In this document: piece after piece, positions 2,116 to 54,407 of the stretch
Layout of the letters: every line of letters begins with the position of its first letter
Position numbering within the stretch: position 1 is the first letter of the stretch
Assembly: GCA_000004695.1 (NCBI GenBank)
Contig: CM000151.3
Location: 2,496,001 to 2,560,000, forward strand
Direction of reading: 5' to 3'
Length of the DNA: 64,000 nucleotides
Origin: Dictyostelium discoideum
Lineage: Eukaryota
Notes under the pieces: model-generated
The model's database searches: none
What the model saw: only the letters and a program-made list of their open reading frames with translations
What the model was told of the DNA's origin: nothing
Made by a program: the position numbers and the translations under genes

Positions 2116-2148
2116 ATTTTCTTGTTTAATCAAATATTTCCATATAAT

Positions 2149-2220
2149 TCCTCATTGGTGTAGTCGGTAACACTCTAGTCTTTCACACTGGTACCTCGGG
2201 TTCGATTCCCGAATGGGGAG
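2149..2220 (+). tRNA. tRNA-Glu (anticodon UUC)
   Basis: Cloverleaf read by hand: acceptor TCCTCAT/ATGGGGA (one G-U), D-stem GTGT/ACAC, anticodon stem CTAGT/ACTGG with loop CTTTCAC (TTC), T-arm TCGGG-TTCGATT-CCCGA, discriminator G. Followed directly by a T8 pol III terminator. Confidence 0.8.
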
Positions 2221-2248
2221 TTTTTTTTACTAAAATTGATATTTTTAC

Positions 2249-6952: not shown

Positions 6953-9253
<2,301 letters not shown>

Positions 9254-9333: not shown

Positions 9334-10025
9334 AATTTGTTGTTTGGTTTTATATTTTTACTTAAAGTATAAATTTAAAATATATTATATATTAAATATT
9401 TAATTTAATTTTTATTATTAATATTTTCTTTTTTTTTTATATTTAATATGATATATTTATATATAAATTTATTTTTATTATTAATGTAAACTATATAATA
9501 TATATATTAACATTGGTTTAGAGGTAATCCATCTTCAATTGAGATTGATTATGGAAAAAGGTTAATTTACAAAATAAAATTGAACAATTTGATGATTTAA
9601 AAAGGTAATTTGTGTATCACGAATAAACTATTTGGGAGGGCTAAGCTAGGAAAGAAGTAATTTAAGGCAAAATGAATTTTATTGCTTGTAGTTATTATTT
9701 TTATTTTTTTTTTATTTAATATCGATATATTAAGATTTATTTGTTATGTTGGAGCGTCAGCACATTAAACTCAAAATAATAACTTTATAAAGAATATACA
9801 AAATAAACTAATTTACAAATGAAAAATGTAAATGAATAAATATAATAAATGAAAATGAATTTAATAATATAAATAATTATTGTAACAAAGAACTACTGCA
9901 TACCTTACAAATTGTAATGAATCTCGTATTCTAACTTTATGGAATACTTATATTATTTTGGATATATCAATAAACGATGTGTGACCCTTGAATAATTAAT
10001 AATAATTTATATAATCTATAGATAT

Positions 10026-10160
10026 CACATCTTAATGAAACGTGGTTATTCCAGGTTAATGAGTGGATAGCAATTGAACGAGCATCAATAGGGGTATCAA
10101 AGAAATGATTAACAACAGTGATACGATCAGTTACACCAGTAATAGCAGCACCATGACCTT
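10026..10160 (-). pseudogene. Discoidin I pseudogene fragment (~135 bp internal piece of the H-type lectin-domain coding region)
   Basis: ~90% identical at nucleotide level to 14292-14428 and 15777-15913 of the two intact discoidin I genes. Homology stops abruptly on both sides. Confidence 0.75.
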
Positions 10161-10335: not shown

Positions 10336-10872
10336 AGTTGACCCAACCACATTGATTACTATTCATTCAGTGTAAAGTGGATGCAAGGACATGCACAACT
10401 AATACTAACATACAGTAGTATCACACAATATAAAGTTTAACCAGATTCTTTAGATTAGCTACTCAAAAATGAGCACATATAATGTGTATGATTTTTATTA
10501 TTATTATTTATTTGATATTAATTAATTATTTACTTGATCTAGATGTAGATATTTTAGTAATAATAGGTGTTAATTCGGATTTTTTTTAAATTTGTATTTC
10601 TGCATGCAATATTATGTGTGAGTTTCAAAAAAAAAAAAAAAAATAAAAAAAAAAAAAAAATAAATAAAATTTTAAAAACCTTAATAATATAATGTTAATA
10701 TATAAAAAAATGAAATTATAGATCAAATAAATAAATGTTATTCGTAAATAGTAAAAACTCAAATAAATTCCTACCAATTTAATGTGGTTGACCTCATTCT
10801 TTTTTTAATTTTATTTAACCTTATTAGGTAAATTTCAGGGAAATCTAGATATTTAAATGGATAAAAAGAATG

Positions 10873-10951
10873 TGAGAGATGCGGGGTTCGAACCCGCGAC
10901 CCCGGAGGATAGAGCCTAAATCTATTGTCTTAACCACTCGACCAATCTCCC
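10873..10951 (-). tRNA. tRNA-Leu (anticodon UAG), long variable arm
   Basis: Reverse complement folds: acceptor GGGAGAT/ATCTCTC (one G-U), D-arm GTC-GAGTGGTTAA-GAC, anticodon arm ATAGA-TTTAGGC-TCTAT (TAG), 11-nt variable arm, T-arm GCGGG-TTCGAAC-CCCGC, discriminator A. T5 terminator just downstream on its own strand. Confidence 0.75.
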
Positions 10952-13861: not shown

Positions 13862-13979
13862 AAAGCTTTTTGTTTTATAATAAAAAAAAATAAAATTAAA
13901 TTTTATTTGTTTTTATTTTTTTTTAAAATTGATTAATAATTAAATTACAATTTTAATAATTTTTTAAAAAATTATTTGT

Positions 13980-14741
13980 TTATTCTAAAGCGGTGGCAAT
14001 GTAATCAGCTCTTAATGAATAGACTTTGTTTTCATTCCAAGTGTAGAAAACACAATCAAAACCTTTGGTGGTAATGTTTCTTGGTTGAACACCAATACGA
14101 GTTTGATTGGTAGCATCAGTACAATCGATTTGATCAAAGTTGAGGGCAACCTTTGGGAGAGTAGCAAATTCAAATTGGAATTTAACTGGGACAACAACTT
14201 CACGTTTACCTGAACCGGTATTTAAGGCACAGTTATCGCCAGTGTAAATATCTGCACCAACTTGAGTGACTGAGCTTTGTACTGGTTGAGTGTAGAATTC
14301 ACATCTTAATGAAATGTGGTTATTCCAGGTTAATGGGTGGATAGCAATTGAACGAGCTCTAATTGGAGTATCAAAGAAATGATTAACAACAGTGTTACGA
14401 TCAGTTACACCAGTAATAGCAGCACCATTACGATATTCAGACCAGGTAACATTATCTAATGAATAACGGATTTTGTATGATGTAACCCATTGATCATGAT
14501 CACCACGACCTTGGAGAGCAACACACATAAAAGTACGTGGAACTTCACAACCAGCAACAATGTATTGGTTAGTATCTACGATTGATGAACACCAAGCTTC
14601 TGAACCATCAATAGTATTGGTACCTTTGTTTTTATAGTTTAAAGCAGCATTAAATTGAGTGTGGACACCATTGTAATTGGTTGAGGTTCTTAAATGACAT
14701 TGAGCATTTCCGAGAAGTGTAACTAAACCTTGGGTAGACAT
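13980..14741 (-). CDS. Discoidin I (253 aa; N-terminal discoidin/F5-8 type C domain plus C-terminal H-type lectin domain), intact, intronless
   Basis: Protein [29 protein letters not shown]...[10 protein letters not shown] recognised as discoidin I from memory. Complete ATG..TAA. Confidence 0.9.
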
Positions 14742-15119: not shown

Positions 15120-15464
15120 TAAATTTGTAAATTTGGAATTTTTATGATTGAAAATAATTATATCTTTTTTTTTTTTATGATTTTTTTTTTTTTATTGATT
15201 TTTTTTATTTTTTTTTTATTGTTTTTTCAATGAAAAAAAAAGTTTTTATTCCTTAAAGATTGACGATAATTAATTTAGATTGGATATTATAAAAATACAG
15301 TTTTTTTTTTTTTTTTTTTATCATTTTTTATTTCAAATTTAATAATAATAGTTTAGAAATGGAAAAAATATAATAAACAAAATCTTGAATTTGGATTTTT
15401 TTTTTTTTTTTTTATTAAATTTGATTAAAAATTAAATTACAATTTTAATAATAAGATTAAAAAT

Positions 15465-16226
15465 TTATTCTAAAGCAGTAGCAATGTAATCAGCTCTTAA
15501 TGAATAGACTTTGTTAGCATTCCAAGTGTAGAAAACACAATCGAAACCTTTGGTGGTAATGTTTCTTGGTTGAACACCAATACGAGTTTGATTGGTAGCA
15601 TCAGTACAATCGATTTGATCAAAGTTGAGGGCAACCTTTGGGAGAGTAGCAAATTCAAATTGGAATTTAACTGGGACAACAACTTCACGTTTACCTGAAC
15701 CGGTATTTAAGGCACAGTTATCGCCAGTGTAAATATCTGCACCAACTTGAGTGACTGAGCTTTGTACTGGTTGAGTGTAGAATTCACATCTTAATGAAAT
15801 GTGGTTATTCCAGGTTAATGGGTGGATAGCAATTGAACGAGCTCTAATTGGAGTATCAAAGAAATGATTAACAACAGTGTTACGATCAGTTACACCAGTA
15901 ATAGCAGCACCATTACGATATTCAGACCAGGTAACATTATCTAATGAATAACGGATTTTGTATGATGTAACCCATTGATCATGATCACCACGACCTTGGA
16001 GAGCAACACACATAAAAGTACGTGGAACTTCACAACCAGCAACAATGTATTGGTTGGTATCTACGATTGATGAACACCAAGCTTCTGAACCATCAATAGT
16101 ATTGGTACCTTTGTTTTTATAGTTTAAAACAGCATTAAATTGAGTGTGGACATCATTGTAATTGGTTGAGGTTCTTAAATGACATTGAGCATTTGAGATA
16201 AGTTGAACTAAACCTTGGGTAGACAT
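15465..16226 (-). CDS. Discoidin I, second tandem copy (253 aa, 7 amino-acid differences from the first copy), intact
   Basis: Near-identical ORF 1485 bp upstream of the first. The 5' and 3' flanks are also conserved, so the duplication unit is ~1.5 kb. Confidence 0.9.
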
Positions 16227-17190: not shown

Positions 17191-17580
17191 ATATAATTTT
17201 AAAATTTAGCTTCTCTAGGTTTCGATCCTAGGACCTCGAGGTTATGGGCCTCGCACTCTACCCCTGAGTTAAGAAGCTGTCGATTCAAGCTAACGAATCT
17301 TATGATTTTGTTGTAATAAAGTTACTCTATAAAATTAATACATATTAAATATGCATATTACATTACTAATTTTAGTTGACACACATTTAAATAATATAAT
17401 AATAATAATAATAATAATACTGTCAACTCATTATAAATAATATAAATACTAAAGAATAATTTTATAAACAATATTGAATATTAAATATAAACTAATATTA
17501 AATAAAGATAACAAAGTATTATTCAATTATATAATTATTAATTATATATATTTATAAAGCTAACAAGCTTTATTACATTT
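17163..17580 (-). repeat. Arm A of an inverted segmental duplication (~420 bp): tRNAi-Met gene plus 302 bp upstream flank and ~45 bp downstream flank
   Basis: Reverse complement of 20315-20730 with only a few mismatches. Confidence 0.85.
17207..17278 (-). tRNA. Initiator tRNA-Met (anticodon CAU), copy A
   Basis: Identical to copy B, see 20614-20685. Confidence 0.85.
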
Positions 17581-20613: not shown

Positions 20614-20685
20614 AGCTTCTTAACTCAGGGGTAGAGTGCGAGGCCCATAACCTCGAGGTCCTAGGATCGAAACCTAGAGAAGCTA
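20614..20685 (+). tRNA. Initiator tRNA-Met (anticodon CAU), copy B
   Basis: AGCTTCTTAACTCAGGGGTAGAGTGCGAGGCCCATAACCTCGAGGTCCTAGGATCGAAACCTAGAGAAGCTA. Perfect 7-bp acceptor stem. Anticodon loop CCCATAA has C33. T-loop GATCGAAAC has A54 and A60. These are eukaryotic initiator-specific features. Similar to human tRNAi-Met (GGCCCATAACC, AGGTC, GGATCGAAACC blocks). Confidence 0.85.
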
Positions 20686-43801: not shown

Positions 43802-45126
43802 TTAATTATAAAAATTAAATAAATAATCAATAGTTAAAGAATATTGTTTTAATTGTTGATAAATATGATGAATTAAATTTGGAATTTTTGATTCAAAATA
43901 TAATAAGATAGAATCTTGACTTGATAAATACTCTAAAACTTCTAAATTTGGACGTGATTGTTGATTTTGAAATTGTTGAATGATTGCTCTTTTAATTTCT
44001 TTATGATGAGCAATTGTATTTCTAATGAATCTAATTAAATCTCTAACTTTATCATATTGATATGAAATGGTTATTTTTGAACCTTTTGTTGGTGTTAAAA
44101 GATTGGTTACATCAATTAAATGATTCCAAGAATCATTTAAAAATGGTTCATCATTATCATCACAATGATTTAATTGTTTTGTTAACTTTGAATTGTAACT
44201 TGAGTTTGAAGGTTCTTTAATTAAATTTAAAGCTGCATCAATGAATTGTATTTTCTTTTCTAAATTCCAAAACAATGGATGATTTAAAACATTTTGGATG
44301 GTTGGTCTAATTGATTCATCTTTTGAAATCATTGATTTAATTAAAGTACAAGCCAATTGATTTGAATTCAATGGAGTTAGATTCATTTTATTTGAAATTA
44401 TATTAACTATACGAAATAATTTATCATTACCAAATGGATGTTGACCATTTGTTAAAAGATAAAATAAAATACAACCCAATGAAAATATATCGACAGATTT
44501 TGTCATTCTTTTACTTTGTAATACTTCAAATGGATGATAACCACCTTGACCTGTTGGTATATTACTTGTAAATGAATATGATGATTCAACTTCCATTTTA
44601 CTTAATCCAAGATCTGATATAATGAATGAGTTATTTGAACTATTATTATTATTACTAGTTTTACCAATTAATGTTAAAATATTACGTGGATTTAAATCAT
44701 TATGAACAATATCATGAGAATGAAGGAATTGAATACCAAAGAGAATATCTTTTGCAAGTTCAATAATTGATTTGTTTGATGAAATAACAAAATCATTTAA
44801 TTTACCACTTTCAACTAAATTCTGTAATGATCCATCACATAATGTTAAACCTAAATATACATGAAGTTTATCTTCCTCTTTATCAATATATCTAATCATA
44901 TTTGAACAATTTTTACTTGTTAATGAAATTAATGCTTCAACTTCTTTATTGATAAGTGGATTGAATGCTTTTTGCATTTGTTTAATTGCAACTGGTATTT
45001 TATCACTCCATAAACCTTTAAATACTAATGTACCATTTGAACCTCTACCTAATATATTTGATTCATTTCTATTAAATTTAAATTTACCAATTGATACAAA
45101 ATCTTCATCTTGAATTATATTATTTA

Positions 45127-45198
<72 letters not shown>

Positions 45199-47927
45199 CA
45201 TTGATTAAATTTTGTTTTTTATTATTTTCAATTATTAATTTTTTAGTTTGTTCATTTTTGAATTGTGATGTAATTACTTTTGCTGGTGTTGTTGTTGTTG
45301 GTGTTGTTGATGTTGTTATTGTTGATTTTGATTTTTTATTATCCTTTTTAACAGAAATCCAAGATGGTTCACCAATTCCACCCCATTTCATATTACTATT
45401 AATTTGTTTTTTATTAATATTAATCTCTTCATATTCATCAATTGTTTCCATTTCTTTTTTCTTTTGATTTTCTTCTTCTAATTGAATTTCAATAATTGAT
45501 TGAATTTTCTTTACAGAATCAATTGGAGTTTCAATTGATGATTTTAATAAAACTACATTATCATTTTTTGGTTCTAAAATTGGTGTTATTGATTCTAATT
45601 GAATAGTTAATGATGATGATGGTTGTTGTTGCTGTTGTTTTAATAATTGAAGTGGTGGTGGTTGTTGTTGTTGTTGATTTAATAATGGTAATTGAAAATT
45701 TTGAATTTCTTTAATTTCTAATTTTTTATTAATTTCATCAATTTTTAATTGATTTTGTTGAATATTTTTATTAATTTCATCAATTTCTTGAATACTTTTT
45801 TGTTTAATTTCATCAATTTCTTTTTGTTTTAATAATTCAAATTCTTTTTCTTTTTGTTTTGATAATTCTTTTTCTTTTTCTTTTTGTTTTTGTTTTTCAA
45901 TTAATTTTTGTTTTTCATCATCTTGAAGTTTTTTATATAATCTTTTTCTTTCCAATTTTTGTAGTTTCTTTTCTCTTTTTTTCATTTGTTCTTCAAGTTG
46001 TTTTTCTTTTTGTTTTTCAAGTTTAATTAAGAGTAAGTCTTGTTTTTCTTTTAATCTTTTCTCTCTTTTTAATCTTTTTTTAATTTTTTCTTGTTGTTTT
46101 TGTTTCTTTCTTTTTTCTTCAAGTTCCAACTCTTCCAATAGTTCAGATTCAGCGATTCTAGATTGATTTTCTCTCTTTGAAAAAGTTAATAGCTTTCTTG
46201 CCATTTGTTTTAATTGTTGATCATTGAAAACATTTGAATTTTCAAAACAAGTTTCTAAAGCCGACAAATAATCTTGATCAGAATTTGAAAAGTTTGAAGT
46301 GAAACCAAAGAAATTAACACTACTTGAATCATCATCTTCAAAATTAATTAAATCATCTTCAAAATTATTTCTAATTATATCTGAACAACTTAAAAAAGTT
46401 TTAAAAATTAATGGTACTGGTATGATTGATAATAATAATCTTGGATTTAAATCAAAGAATTTATAAAACATTGGACGTTCTTTTAAATTTAAAATATCAC
46501 TACCAATATAAGCAAAGAAAACCAATGGAATACTTTGTTTACTCCATCTATTTGGTGTTGAAACCATTGATTCGCAAAGCATAAAAGTTTTAAAACTATC
46601 ATTTTGAACTAATAATGATTCTATCATTTGAATTTCTTCAATTAATGTTGAAAGTATTAAAATTCTTTGAGAAACACCCATATGATTACAAACTAAATTT
46701 GATAATAAAGCAATAATAGTTGTTGACGGTGCATTATATTTTAATAATCTTGAAATCATTGAATCAACTTTATAATTTGAAAATTCTATTAAACTTTCTT
46801 CTTTAATACTATTTTCATCTTCATTATGATCACCATCATTATTATTATTATTATTATTGTTACAACCAGAATGATGATCATCATCATCATCATAATCATC
46901 ATAATCATCATCATCATGATTATTATTATTAATTGATCTAATTGATATATGATATCGTTCTTTTAAAATTAAATCTTCAATTTCATTAATTTCAGTATTA
47001 AAATGAATTAAATTTTTTGTAAATAAATTAATATAATCTTTTTGTTTATCAATTGGAATTTGATGATTATTAAAATCAAAAGAACAATTTAAAATTCTAA
47101 AATGATTTTCAATTGGATTTAGCGAAGATCTTGATTCAATACCCCATAAACTATTTCTTGATGGTATTGAAGTTATAAATGTTGGGAATTTTGAAATTAA
47201 AAGTTTTGCAACATTGATACTAAAGTTTGTAGTTGTAAACTCTAATAATCTAACGAGATCAATCGATAAATTTGAATTGGTTGATGTTTTAGTTCTTTTA
47301 TAATTTTCATTTGCATCTGATGATGGATGAATTGAAAAATTTAATTTATTATTAACCTTATCCAATTTGAAAAATTCAATTAAAAATTTGGAAGCAATTG
47401 AAAATGAATCAAAATTACAAATTAATCTCCAAACATTCTCCAATTGTTCATAACTATTTGAATCGATTAATAATGTTGAAATGAATAAATCTGAGCAATC
47501 ACTTTCAATTATACCAACCAATGATAACTGGTCACTTTTATAACGATAAATGTAATCTAATTTCTCCGATTTCCAAACGCCATTACAAACGATTCTTTTA
47601 TAAACTTCATTATTTAAATGCAATGCTTTCTTGAATTGTTGATATCTTTGTTGATAGGTTTTTTGTTTCCATTGCTCGATTGGTTTAATAAGATTACAAT
47701 AACTACGTACTTGAAATGAAATACCTCTAACAATAAATTCAATAATATCCATTGATAAATAATCTTTAAAACAATTTAAAAAATTAAAAACAATTGATGA
47801 ATTTTGATTCTTTTCTTCGCTACCATTATTATCTTTTTCAAAATAATCACAAATTACATGTTTATTAATTTCTTTTGAATTTTTTAAAATTTCTAAATAT
47901 TCTTTTAAATTTTTATTTAAAAATTTA
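43802..47927 (-). CDS. IRE1-like protein: C-terminal Ser/Thr kinase domain followed by a KEN (kinase-extension nuclease) RNase domain. Preceded by a long Lys/Glu coiled-coil and an unrelated N-terminal region. No signal peptide or lumenal sensor domain. Exon 2 of 2, or a single exon starting at ATG 47752
   Basis: [49 protein letters not shown] kinase motifs. KEN-like tail PLFW...[19 protein letters not shown]. Dictyostelium has an IRE1-like (irl) gene family (established). Confidence 0.8.
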
Positions 47928-50636: not shown

Positions 50637-51389
50637 TTAATAACTACAATAATTATTAAATGTATATAATGTATCACCTGAACTCATATCAGAGGCAGTA
50701 GTATTAAAGAATGGAGAAACGGCTTCACAAATCGTAGTTTGGTCTTGTGGATTAGTACAATTACTTCCATTATTTTCACAGGTCATTGCCATTGGGGTAT
50801 TATTTAAACAGTAAAATTCACTAACTGTACCAAAGATTGGGATAAAAACTTGAGTTTGATTTGAAAAGGTTTCATAATATATAATATCACTATCGCCATC
50901 AGTACAATCACCATAGTTATGTGATACAACAGTTGAACTTGGTGCAATGAATGGTTGATCCTTGGTAATTTGAATGAGATAATAAATTTCTGGTGTTGAT
51001 GATGAGGATGATGAGGAGGATGATGAATCATAATTTACTGATTGATAAAATGAGTTGAATACTAAATCTTTACCAGAGACACATTCACCAATTAAAGCAG
51101 TACGAGTTTTCATTGATTTAATTTCACAAAGTTCTGTTACACCTCCTTTGTTATAGTATTGAGTAAAACTTATTGAATTTTCTTGTTCTAAATATTTAAA
51201 TAACCAATTTCTAGAATTATCAAAAGTGAAACAAGTATTAATTAAACCGCCATAACCAATACCTGATGGATTTCCACTACATTGTACACTTTCAAATGGA
51301 ATGAAATTTACATATAATTTTTGATATGCATTTGAAAAACTAATTAATAATAATACTATTAAAAGTAATGGTGAAATTATTTGTTTCAT
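50637..51389 (-). CDS. Hypothetical secreted cysteine-containing protein, 250 aa (signal peptide, poly-Ser hinge)
   Basis: N-terminal hydrophobic signal MKQIISPLLLIVLLLISFSNA. No family recognised. Confidence 0.6.
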   Translation of the reverse strand: MKQIISPLLLIVLLLISFSNAYQKLYVNFIPFESVQCSGNPSGIGYGGLINTCFTFDNSRNWLFKYLEQENSISFTQYYNKGGVTELCEIKSMKTRTALIGECVSGKDLVFNSFYQSVNYDSSSSSSSSSSTPEIYYLIQITKDQPFIAPSSTVVSHNYGDCTDGDSDIIYYETFSNQTQVFIPIFGTVSEFYCLNNTPMAMTCENNGSNCTNPQDQTTICEAVSPFFNTTASDMSSGDTLYTFNNYCSY

Positions 51390-52177: not shown

Positions 52178-52387
52178 TTAATTATTTTTATAATTGCATT
52201 CATCTTTACAATTTTTTAAAACTGCTCTACATTTTGGATTTAATAATGCTCCTTTTGGACAATCTTTATAAAAATTTGGTTCTTTATTAATACAATCTAC
52301 GAAACAGGTAATATCTTTCCCATTTACTGCATTTAAATTTGAAAGTAATGAGAAAATCACTAAAATAGCTATTAAAAATTTTAACAT
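52178..52387 (-). CDS. Small secreted 8-cysteine peptide (69 aa precursor), paralog A
   Basis: Signal peptide MLKFLIAILVIFSLLSNLNA. Mature part ..C..DC......Y.DC......C......C...C similar to paralog B. Confidence 0.6.
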   Translation of the reverse strand: MLKFLIAILVIFSLLSNLNAVNGKDITCFVDCINKEPNFYKDCPKGALLNPKCRAVLKNCKDECNYKNN

Positions 52388-53128
52388 GATTATTTTTTAT
52401 TTTTTATCTTTTTTTATAAAAAACCATAAAAATATATATATATTAATATATATAAATAAAATTTTTTTTTAAAGTTTTTTTTGATATATTTATTTATTTT
52501 TTACCTTTTTTAAATTATATTCCGATTTTTTAATAATAAAAAAAATAGTATCCAATTTATATACAAAAAAAAAAAACGATAAAATAATAAAATATAATAA
52601 AAAAAAAAAAAAACAATTAAAATTGTAAAATAAACCAATATCGGATAAAAGATAGGGCAATGTATGAATGTGTTGGTGTATGAAACCCGACATTAAAATT
52701 AAAAATAGGTCTGTTTTTTATTCAACTCCCACAAACACCACACATGATTTTAAGTTTTTTTATATTTTTTTATTTTTTATTTTTAATTATAACTTAATTT
52801 TATTTTCCCTATATAAACCATTTGTTTTTTGGATTTGGTTGGCAAAAACTAAATATAAAAAATTATCACATGTGGTATGGGTATGGGTTTTGATTACAAA
52901 TCTAATTTATTTTAAATTTTTATTTCCATTTTTAAATATTTACAAAAATGTAAATTAAATCTTAAAATTTAAAATATCTTTGATAAGATTATTTTATTTG
53001 CAATTAAAAATTAAAATACTTAGAATAGAAATAATAAAAATAATAAAAAAAATAATAATAATAATAATATAAATAATAATACTACCAATAATAATAATAA
53101 TAATACTACTAATAATTATACTACTAAT

Positions 53129-53188
<60 letters not shown>

Positions 53189-53397
53189 AATAATAGTAAT
53201 AATAAAAATAAAAATAATGATAATAAAAATAATAATAATGATAATAATAATAATTATTATAATTAATATTGAAAAAGGTTTTCTTATTTTTTTTTTTATT
53301 AAAATTAAATAATTAAATTAAATTAAAATAATTAAAGTAATAAAAATTTTTATTATTTTTAATTTTTATAATTTTAAAATTTAAATTTTTAAAATTA

Positions 53398-53601
53398 TTA
53401 ATGTTTTGCGCAACTAGCTTTGCATCTTCTAATAATATTTTTACAAGCAGTTCCTTTATAAACGTCTGTACAATCAATTGTATAATTTGGGTCATGATCA
53501 AGACAATCAAGAACACATTGCACTTCATATTTATTTTCTGATACTACCCACGAAATATTTAATGACAATAATAATACTAAAATTAATAAAAATAATTTTT
53601 T
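53398..53601 (-). CDS. Small secreted 8-cysteine peptide, paralog B, exon 2 (KKLFLLILVLLLSLNISWVVSENKYEVQCVLDCLDHDPNYTIDCTDVYKGTACKNIIRRCKASCAKH*)
   Basis: Correct frame differs from track ORF 53313-53528. Cys spacing matches paralog A. No in-frame ATG, so an upstream ATG exon is required. Confidence 0.55.
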   Translation of the reverse strand, partial: KKLFLLILVLLLSLNISWVVSENKYEVQCVLDCLDHDPNYTIDCTDVYKGTACKNIIRRCKASCAKH

Positions 53602-53689
53602 CTATTATTTTATTATTTATTTTTTTTATTTGGAATTATTAATATATATTTTTATATTTAAATATGAAATTCTAAAATATCAAAGTTAC

Positions 53690-53692
53690 CAT
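53690..53692 (-). CDS. Paralog B exon 1 (ATG only), donor GTAACT at 53689-53684, 82-bp intron, acceptor TAG at 53602-53604
   Basis: AAAAAATG|GTAACT... gives M + KKLFLLILVLLLSL, a canonical signal peptide. Confidence 0.45.
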
Positions 53693-54407
53693 TTTTTAAA
53701 ATTTTGTTTTTTTTTTAATAATATTTGATTAAAAATGGAAAAATAAAATAAAAACTTTTTATTCTTTTATTCTTTTTTTTATATTTTTTTATATAAAAAA
53801 AATTAAATTAATTAAAAGTAAAAAAAAAAAAATTAATAAATAATTATCATAAATAAAAAAAAAGAAATTAAATAAATGGATGGTTTTAGTAGTGGATGTA
53901 TGAATGTATTATTTTGTAAAAATTTATTTCATTTTCAAGTAATATTTTATATTTCTTTTTTTTTTTTTTTTTTTATTTTTTTCTATCATGAGTTAAAATA
54001 GAAACACAGATTTTAAAACTAGATTAAAACTATATGTTAGATAAAAATGTTATTATATTTATATTTTTAAAAAACTTTATTTGTTTTTAATTGGATATTC
54101 ATATTTATTTTAAATTTTATTTTGGAAAATGTAAACTTTTTTTTTTTTTTTTTTTTTTTATCAAAAAAAAAACAAGGATTTAAAATTAGATTTAAAAAAT
54201 AACTTCAAAAGGAAAGTTTTATTTATATTATTAAACTTTAATTGGGTATTTTTTATTTTAATTTTTAATTTTTTTTATTTTTTTTTAATTAAAATTAAAG
54301 TATTTTATTTTATTTTATTTTATTTTAAATTTTTTTTTTTTTTTAATTTTTTTAATTTTTTTTTTTTTATATTATTTGTTTTTTTTTATTATTATTATTA
54401 TTTTAAT

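Follow-up and report, generated by a model that had tools for sequence, protein, structure and literature searches.

A window of 64,000 nucleotides (nt) from chromosome 2 of Dictyostelium discoideum AX4, whose G+C content runs from 12 to 32%, carries on its minus strand two small genes, here called paralog A and paralog B, which would encode cysteine-rich (Cys-rich) precursors of secreted proteins and the second of which appears to have its ATG as the sole coding part of its first exon (coordinates in Table 1). Two small homologous open reading frames (ORFs) had been proposed here by an earlier, sequence-only reading of the window, and both are present, one of 69 residues (A) and one of 68 residues after splicing (B); both loci are real genes. 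A is translated as MLKFLIAILVIFSLLSNLNAVNGKDITCFVDCINKEPNFYKDCPKGALLNPKCRAVLKNCKDECNYKNN, an exact match to DDB_G0273111/DDB_G0273849 (Q556S8), which is labelled "hypothetical protein" and sits in a duplicated part of chromosome 2, and the B exon matches the annotated DDB_G0273337/DDB_G0273845. The two proteins find each other in BLASTP at E=1e-7 and in reciprocal tblastn within the window at E of about 5e-8, and their N-termini, as read from the sequence, are hydrophobic and compatible with the -3/-1 rule of signal peptide cleavage (Kyte-Doolittle maximum of 3.3-3.9 for this segment of A), which argues for the paralogous pair of small secreted Cys-rich precursors that had been suggested. By these alignments, A and B are tandem paralogs on the same strand, about 1 kb apart.

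Some particulars of the earlier reading did not survive. Each precursor has six cysteines where eight had been counted, the framework shared by A and B is C-x3-C-x10-C-x8/9-C-x6-C-x3-C and not the spacing that had been given, and identity amounts to 26-27% overall and, by our own count, to about 30% within the Cys domain, against the roughly 35% claimed. Neither tblastn nor a Cys-pattern scan of the window found family members beyond A and B. The DNA between the two genes includes, at 53040-53250, a long and imperfect (AAT)n microsatellite of a kind usual between Dictyostelium genes, which gives rise to numerous spurious poly-Leu and poly-Ile matches in tblastn.

A start-codon intron in paralog B

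The reading frame of B opens at 53601, right behind an in-frame TAG that doubles as the acceptor AG, and no in-frame ATG occurs in this frame before the first Cys, so that B must be spliced. Reading on unspliced from the ATG at 53692 leads to a stop after 6 codons; joining 53690 to 53601 places that ATG directly before AAAAAATTA and yields the precursor MKKLFLLILVLLLSLNISWVVSENKYEVQCVLDCLDHDPNYTIDCTDVYKGTACKNIIRRCKASCAKH. Only two single-intron models keep the frame open in AX4, and the second of them would have to remove 474 nt from a GTTTTT donor onwards. Once spliced, the N-terminus reads MKKLFLLILV... and lines up gaplessly with the signal peptide MLKFLIAILV... of the family described below, homology to this family extends up to 53601, and the hydrophobic core reaches 3.8, against 2.05 for the N-terminus deposited in GenBank. 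The sequence marks of a start-codon intron are found, namely a GT...AG intron that directly follows the ATG, recurs in the orthologs and restores the sole complete ORF. An uninterrupted ATG start is seen in A and in the two other family loci that were examined at the DNA level (L001 and L004, in other assemblies). The structure that this evidence assigns to B consists of a first exon whose coding part is the ATG, a phase-0 intron of 88 nt and a single further exon with the remainder, and the one-codon first exon that had been put forward is backed by its conservation across three species.

In the ORF list, the true frame of B appears only as a 56-residue TTG ORF, and what a naive ORF finder would report is instead the wrong-frame ATG ORF of 71 residues that had indeed been pointed out. 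The claim that B is hidden is accordingly right for ORF finders; it does not extend to the public annotation, where the gene is present as DDB_G0273337/DDB_G0273845, with a different N-terminus.

Conservation in D. citrinum and D. purpureum

The neighbouring gene DDB_G0273273 (54408-54986) served to locate the syntenic regions, L002 in D. citrinum and L003 in D. purpureum. At the D. citrinum ortholog of B, the 15-nt context TTTAAAAAATGGTAA is identical to that of AX4, the intron likewise measures 88 nt, and the exon behind it begins AAAAAACTATTTTTATTAATTTTAG and encodes KKLFLLIL, its first 25 bases differing from AX4 at one position, synonymously (TTA to CTA). The D. purpureum member has ATG/GTAAAT (the slash marking the splice site), an 81-nt intron and an AG/TTT acceptor that leads into MFKNSLIIKIALVLMVSLLLMESNNIGVHA..., and it matches the family with an hhalign probability of 89% (E=2e-6). 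The start-codon-intron model is the only model common to AX4, D. citrinum and D. purpureum. Since the D. purpureum site holds a single member, the duplication into A and B seems to post-date the split from D. purpureum.

The D. citrinum ortholog of A is syntenic and intact (L002 12187-12405). Ratios of non-synonymous to synonymous divergence (dN/dS) against D. citrinum are 0.28-0.29 for A and, for B, 0.31 in the signal part and 0.21 in the mature part, at synonymous divergences (dS) of 0.4-0.8. A and B are under purifying selection, including those signal-peptide codons of B that GenBank counts as intron. As to annotation, the A ortholog is not called in D. citrinum, nor is the family ortholog in D. 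purpureum, and ACTFIV_007092 (P0017; L002 10001-11388) is a 239-residue chimera in which the D. citrinum counterpart of DDB_G0273273 runs on into the B ortholog's last exon; a collection of 15 billion proteins holds none of the D. citrinum and D. purpureum ortholog proteins. Under-annotation, which had been suspected to be systematic, is real in these two species, where members are missing or fused, and not in AX4, where the paralogs are annotated as hypothetical.

In all likelihood, the public annotation of B (DDB_G0273337/DDB_G0273845; 73 residues, N-terminus MNIQLKTNKNKRIKI) has the wrong 5' end, and the start-codon-intron model is the better one. The three-exon GenBank/dictyBase model of DDB_G0273337 (MNIQLKTNKNKRIKILLLSLNIS...) is the deposited one, and D. 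citrinum retains its last acceptor (TTTTAG at 53577), which the annotator of that genome chose as well, but it requires two micro-exons and a weak GTTTTT donor, the ATG of its exon 1 aligns to ATA in D. citrinum and the donor GT of its exon 2 is lost there (AAAAAGTTTT against AAATATTTTA). It also drops KKLFLLIL, a run of in-frame, conserved codons with homology to the family that directly precedes its acceptor, and the N-terminus that it gains in exchange has the weak hydrophobic core mentioned above, so that we hold it very improbable that this model is correct. Still less probable is that B is a decaying pseudogene which has lost its ATG and in which ATG/GT...AG is a coincidence. Such decay would fit the missing in-frame ATG, the absence of the spliced product from protein collections and the frameshift in a T-run of one family member in another assembly; against it stand an ORF that is intact with all six Cys in three species, the dN/dS of 0.21-0.31, and the conservation in all three species of ATG/GTAA and of the acceptor around an intron of 81-88 nt.

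A dictyostelid family of small, predicted secreted proteins

An A+B profile run with HMMER against 1.84 billion representative sequences returned 13 proteins at E<=1e-3, all from Dictyostelium save one low-complexity match; at E<=3e-4, the profile retrieves ten Dictyostelium proteins besides A and B. When a word-index search and look-ups of clusters are added, the AX4 loci number at least 11, and entries from newer assemblies come on top. On this evidence A and B are members of an uncharacterised family, specific to dictyostelids, of small proteins predicted to be secreted, and the older family that had been surmised is borne out by these loci and by the syntenic member in D. purpureum, the split between D. 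discoideum and D. purpureum being dated to about 400 million years ago (PMC3188802). The six Cys are invariant in all 11 full-length members aligned, A and B included, within a framework C-x3-C-x(6-11)-C-x(8-12)-C-x6-C-x3-C behind an N-terminal signal peptide of about 22 residues.

The other AX4 paralogs (DDB_G0282455, 0273241/0273243, 0273183/0273187, 0281753/0281757 and 0293324/0293268), which match the A+B profile at E from 1e-13 to 1e-5 and often lie in tandem pairs, share with A and B their length, the six-Cys framework and a P-N-[YF] motif after the second Cys. Their signal peptide (MLKFLIAILVIFSLLSNLNAV) is near-identical to that of A. Among the non-B paralogs identity is 78% in the signal peptide and 34% in the mature part; B differs by a divergent signal peptide (28% identity) and by its start-codon intron. 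In another assembly, the member ACTFIW_002995 (P0014) has its signal-peptide region put out of frame with the ATG by one T in a T-run, so that the locus is a pseudogene unless the assembly is in error. A start-codon intron was considered for this locus and rejected, the one-base difference breaking an otherwise ordinary single-exon member. Its annotation offsets the frame break with implausible upstream exons to reach a 117-residue product.

Pfam scans of A, of both models of B, of the orthologs and of all 12 aligned members gave nothing credible, single-member matches to TM140, DUF326, FXa_inhibition and cEGF being taken as chance, and sequence searches of solved structures with two family profiles gave only noise at E>0.1 (EGF repeats, LUSH, crystallin). 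Among searchable papers, none on these genes was found by gene ID, UniProt accession or keyword.

Predicted fold

AlphaFold2, run with the family alignment on precursor A and on mature B (47 residues), predicts both as all-helical, with mean predicted local distance difference test (pLDDT) scores of 77.7 and 85.4, respectively. The helices span residues 2-34, 39-42 and 51-63 in precursor A and 2-16, 20-24 and 31-45 in mature B, the layout being the same in both. In the model of mature B, C1 and C2 (C9/C13) lie on helix 1, the short helix ends at C3, and C4, C5 and C6, the last two being C40/C44, lie on the last helix. The predicted fold is a helical hairpin in which one CX3C faces the other, and not a knottin or a defensin. 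Foldseek searches of the PDB with the A and B models found no match at E<7. The small Tim/CHCH proteins, which have twin CX3C motifs, enter the mitochondrial intermembrane space and lack a cleavable signal peptide for the endoplasmic reticulum, are no match in kind, both precursors having a predicted classical hydrophobic N-terminal signal peptide.

Two better-known kinds of disulfide-rich peptide have to be set against this hairpin. The knottin- or defensin-type beta-rich fold proposed in the sequence-only reading, with a beta-sheet core that three disulfides brace, would suit the small size, the signal peptide and the six Cys, but is hardly credible given that the models of A and B contain helices only, at moderate to good confidence, that the CX3C pairs have helical spacing, and that neither Pfam nor the sequences of solved structures yielded a match to those families. 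UniRef, for its part, names the annotated B protein (P0002) a "ShKT domain-containing protein", and the C-terminal C-K-A-S-C-A-K-H of B resembles the ShKT pattern C-x-x-[ST]-C-x-x-C, the final Cys of which is a His in B. There is nevertheless little chance that B is an ShK toxin-like protein acting in the manner of ShK-type channel blockers: the Pfam ShK model (PF01549) finds nothing at E<=10 in either model of B, in its ortholog from D. citrinum, in the member from D. purpureum or among the 12 members of the alignment, and the terminal C-x3-C-x2-C of ShKT occurs in no member of the family, which ends in C-x6-C-x3-C and carries in all its members, unlike ShKT, an N-terminal CX3C.

Shared upstream element and signal-peptide cassette

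The 12-mer ACATTCATACAT occurs exactly twice in the 64 kb, against 0.017 copies expected, once upstream of A and once upstream of B, both copies reading in the sense direction. The two D. citrinum orthologs keep it as well (L002 10896-10907 and 11930-11941), the B copy within a block of about 70 nt that is highly conserved with D. citrinum, and no copy precedes the family members in D. purpureum, L001 and L004. We regard it as a candidate cis-regulatory element shared by A and B.

The DNA of the A signal peptide (52325-52387) is identical at 59 of 63 nt to that of a paralog from another assembly, ACTFIR_000751 (L001 10001-10063), as compared with 48 of 63 nt to that of its own syntenic D. citrinum ortholog (L002 12187-12249). 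The upstream DNA does not share this likeness. The pattern hints that gene conversion or concerted evolution has acted on the signal-peptide segment only.

Neighbouring features

Elsewhere in the window, a tandem direct repeat (13939-14431 and 15424-15916; period of about 1485 nt, 92% identity) has a third, partial copy 4 kb upstream (10019-10157) and probably represents duplicated genes of another family. The remaining neighbours are given in Table 1.

Table 1. Positions of the features discussed, in the window unless another contig is named
Feature	Position	Strand	Remarks
Paralog A, single-exon coding sequence incl. stop	52178..52387	-	69 residues; from ORF list and exact-sequence look-up
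Signal peptide of A, predicted	52319..52387	-	codons 1-23; putative cleavage after VNG (-3/-1 rule)
Mature domain of A	52181..52318	-	46 residues, 6 Cys: C-x3-C-x10-C-x9-C-x6-C-x3-C; from alignments
Paralog B, spliced span	53398-53692	-	68 residues after splicing
B exon 1, coding part	53690..53692	-	ATG only; context AAAAAATG
B start-codon intron	53602..53689	-	phase 0, 88 nt, GTAACT...AATAG
B exon 2 incl. stop	53398..53601	-	KKLFLLILVLLLSLNISWVVSENKYEVQCVLDCLDHDPNYTIDCTDVYKGTACKNIIRRCKASCAKH
Wrong-frame ATG ORF overlapping B	53313..53528	-	71 residues; from ORF list
GenBank DDB_G0273337 exon 1 (MNIQLKTNK)	54076..54102	-	judged spurious; weak donor GTTTTT
GenBank DDB_G0273337 exon 2 (NKRIK plus 1 nt)	53756..53771	-	judged spurious
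GenBank DDB_G0273337 exon 3	53398..53576	-	
12-mer ACATTCATACAT, A copy	52660..52671	-	284 nt before A ATG
12-mer ACATTCATACAT, B copy	53896..53907	-	215 nt before B ATG
D. purpureum family member, unannotated	L003 2747-3058 (GL871603.1)		syntenic position; start-codon intron of 81 nt
ACTFIW_002995 (P0014), family member	L004 about 7660-7860		signal-peptide region out of frame with ATG by one T in T-run
AX4 family loci: DDB_G0273111, 0273337, 0273183, 0273187, 0273241, 0273243, 0281753, 0281757, 0282455, 0293268, 0293324			all "hypothetical"
Neighbour gene	50637-51389	-	250-residue secreted protein; D. citrinum ortholog matches Pfam CfaA_B_C (PF11912)
Neighbour single-exon ORF	43802-47752	-	1316 residues; looks like kinase plus KEN/RNase domain, IRE1-like layout
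tRNA gene Glu-TTC	2148-2221	+	
tRNA gene Leu-TAG	10872-10951	-	
tRNA gene Met-CAT	17207-17278	-	
tRNA gene Met-CAT	20614-20685	+	

Product and possible functions

Taken together, these observations point to a joint explanation that we consider likely, in which A and B are tandem paralogs of a dictyostelid family, B has its intron directly behind the ATG, and the products serve as secreted ligands or effectors built on disulfide-stapled helical hairpins. Each gene would give a precursor of about 68 residues, which a signal peptide of about 22 residues would direct into the endoplasmic reticulum before being cut off behind VNG (A) or VVS (B). What remains, a mature domain of some 46 residues, would then fold as a hairpin of helix, short helix and helix, where two disulfides, C1-C6 and C2-C5, probably staple the CX3C of helix 1 to the CX3C that ends the last helix and a third, C3-C4, probably closes the connecting loop. 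The outcome would be a compact, protease-resistant scaffold with a variable surface that may bind an extracellular target or one within the endo-phagosomal lumen, and it would work as a secreted ligand or effector and not as an enzyme.

Several points weigh against this explanation. An internal in-frame ATG in the D. purpureum member could in principle start translation without splicing; the spliced B protein matched nothing in protein collections on exact-sequence look-up; and the gene IDs were not found in the supplements of Dictyostelium transcriptome and proteome papers that were checked. Start-codon introns are reported to be enriched in proteins without signal peptides in an analysis that does not include Dictyostelium (Nielsen and Wernersson, 2006; PMC1626468), which makes B atypical. 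The disulfide pairing is only inferred from the model. Finally, the net charge of the mature peptides ranges across the family from -3 to +5, with B neutral, so that a uniform family of cationic antimicrobial peptides is rejected.

What such products would do can be stated only tentatively, and two readings appear about equally likely, each possible but doubtful when taken by itself. They may be antimicrobial or prey-directed effectors, bacteriolytic or protease-inhibiting like the plant alpha-hairpinins, that are released into phagosomes or the medium. A helical hairpin with CX3C...CX3C is the framework of plant alpha-hairpinin defence peptides, and the family is lineage-specific, tandemly expanded and variable in its mature region. 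Dictyostelium, moreover, is a bacterivore (PMC7078664). The charge range just given and the neutral B speak against effectors of this kind, as do ortholog dN/dS values of 0.2-0.3, which carry no arms-race signal, and the supplements checked of a paper on RNA sequencing of the response to bacteria, in which no family ID was found. Alternatively, they may be secreted autocrine, quorum or developmental signals, comparable to attractin of Aplysia or to the helical, disulfide-rich pheromones of Euplotes. Miniproteins that are predicted to be small, stable, helical and secreted and whose orthologs are under purifying selection would suit this role, Dictyostelium depends heavily on secreted factors, and the conserved upstream 12-mer suggests co-regulation of A and B; on the other side, no receptor, phenotype or expression timing is on record, and the family is limited to group-4 species and varies in copy number. 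A further scenario, which we think unlikely, is a "conotoxin-like" mode, in which a signal-peptide cassette, kept nearly the same among paralogs through gene conversion, and diversified stapled hairpins would together make up a secreted effector or recognition repertoire, with A and B co-regulated through ACATTCATACAT; if true, the peptides of this repertoire could act, for example, against bacteria or in communication between amoebae.

The advance made here is modest and consists in an annotation correction and the delineation of a family. The AX4 gene model DDB_G0273337/DDB_G0273845 should be corrected, and the annotations of D. citrinum and D. purpureum lack or fuse three orthologs, illustrating how, in AT-rich genomes, a first exon of one codon can defeat ORF finders and gene predictors alike. 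The undescribed, dictyostelid-specific family, with at least 11 AX4 loci, comprises miniproteins predicted to be secreted, helical and held by three disulfides, and would be at least as old as the group-4 split of about 400 million years ago. In a model phagocyte, such peptides are obvious candidates for antibacterial effectors or secreted signals, and they are small enough for synthesis and testing.

Comparison with known systems

The B intron resembles the start-codon introns of PMC1626468 in being phase-0, exactly between codons 1 and 2, and in belonging to a short, lysine-rich protein; it differs in that the excess reported there concerns proteins without a signal peptide, whereas B carries one.

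With the ShKT domain (PF01549, PROSITE PS51670) the products share six Cys within about 37 residues and a partly helical character. The alpha-hairpinins or CS-alpha/alpha peptides, which include plant defence peptides of the EcAMP1/MBP-1 type, trypsin inhibitors and the scorpion kappa-hefutoxin, are secreted miniproteins that consist of two antiparallel helices with CX3C ... CX3C, the two motifs being joined by disulfides C1-C4 and C2-C3. The hairpin predicted for A and B has the same placement of CX3C on two antiparallel helices, but the amoeba proteins would differ by a third disulfide and a short middle helix, and by their amoebozoan origin. Sequence and fold searches gave no match to any alpha-hairpinin or CS-alpha/alpha peptide, and the resemblance is at most a structural analogy. 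The last parallel concerns mode of evolution rather than fold. In the conotoxin and amphibian skin-peptide superfamilies, a conserved signal sequence precedes a mature peptide that diverges. The amoeba precursors, which have no evident pro-region and whose orthologs show purifying and not positive selection, differ from these superfamilies in both respects, but resemble them in the disparity among paralogs between 78% identity in the signal peptide and 34% in the mature part.

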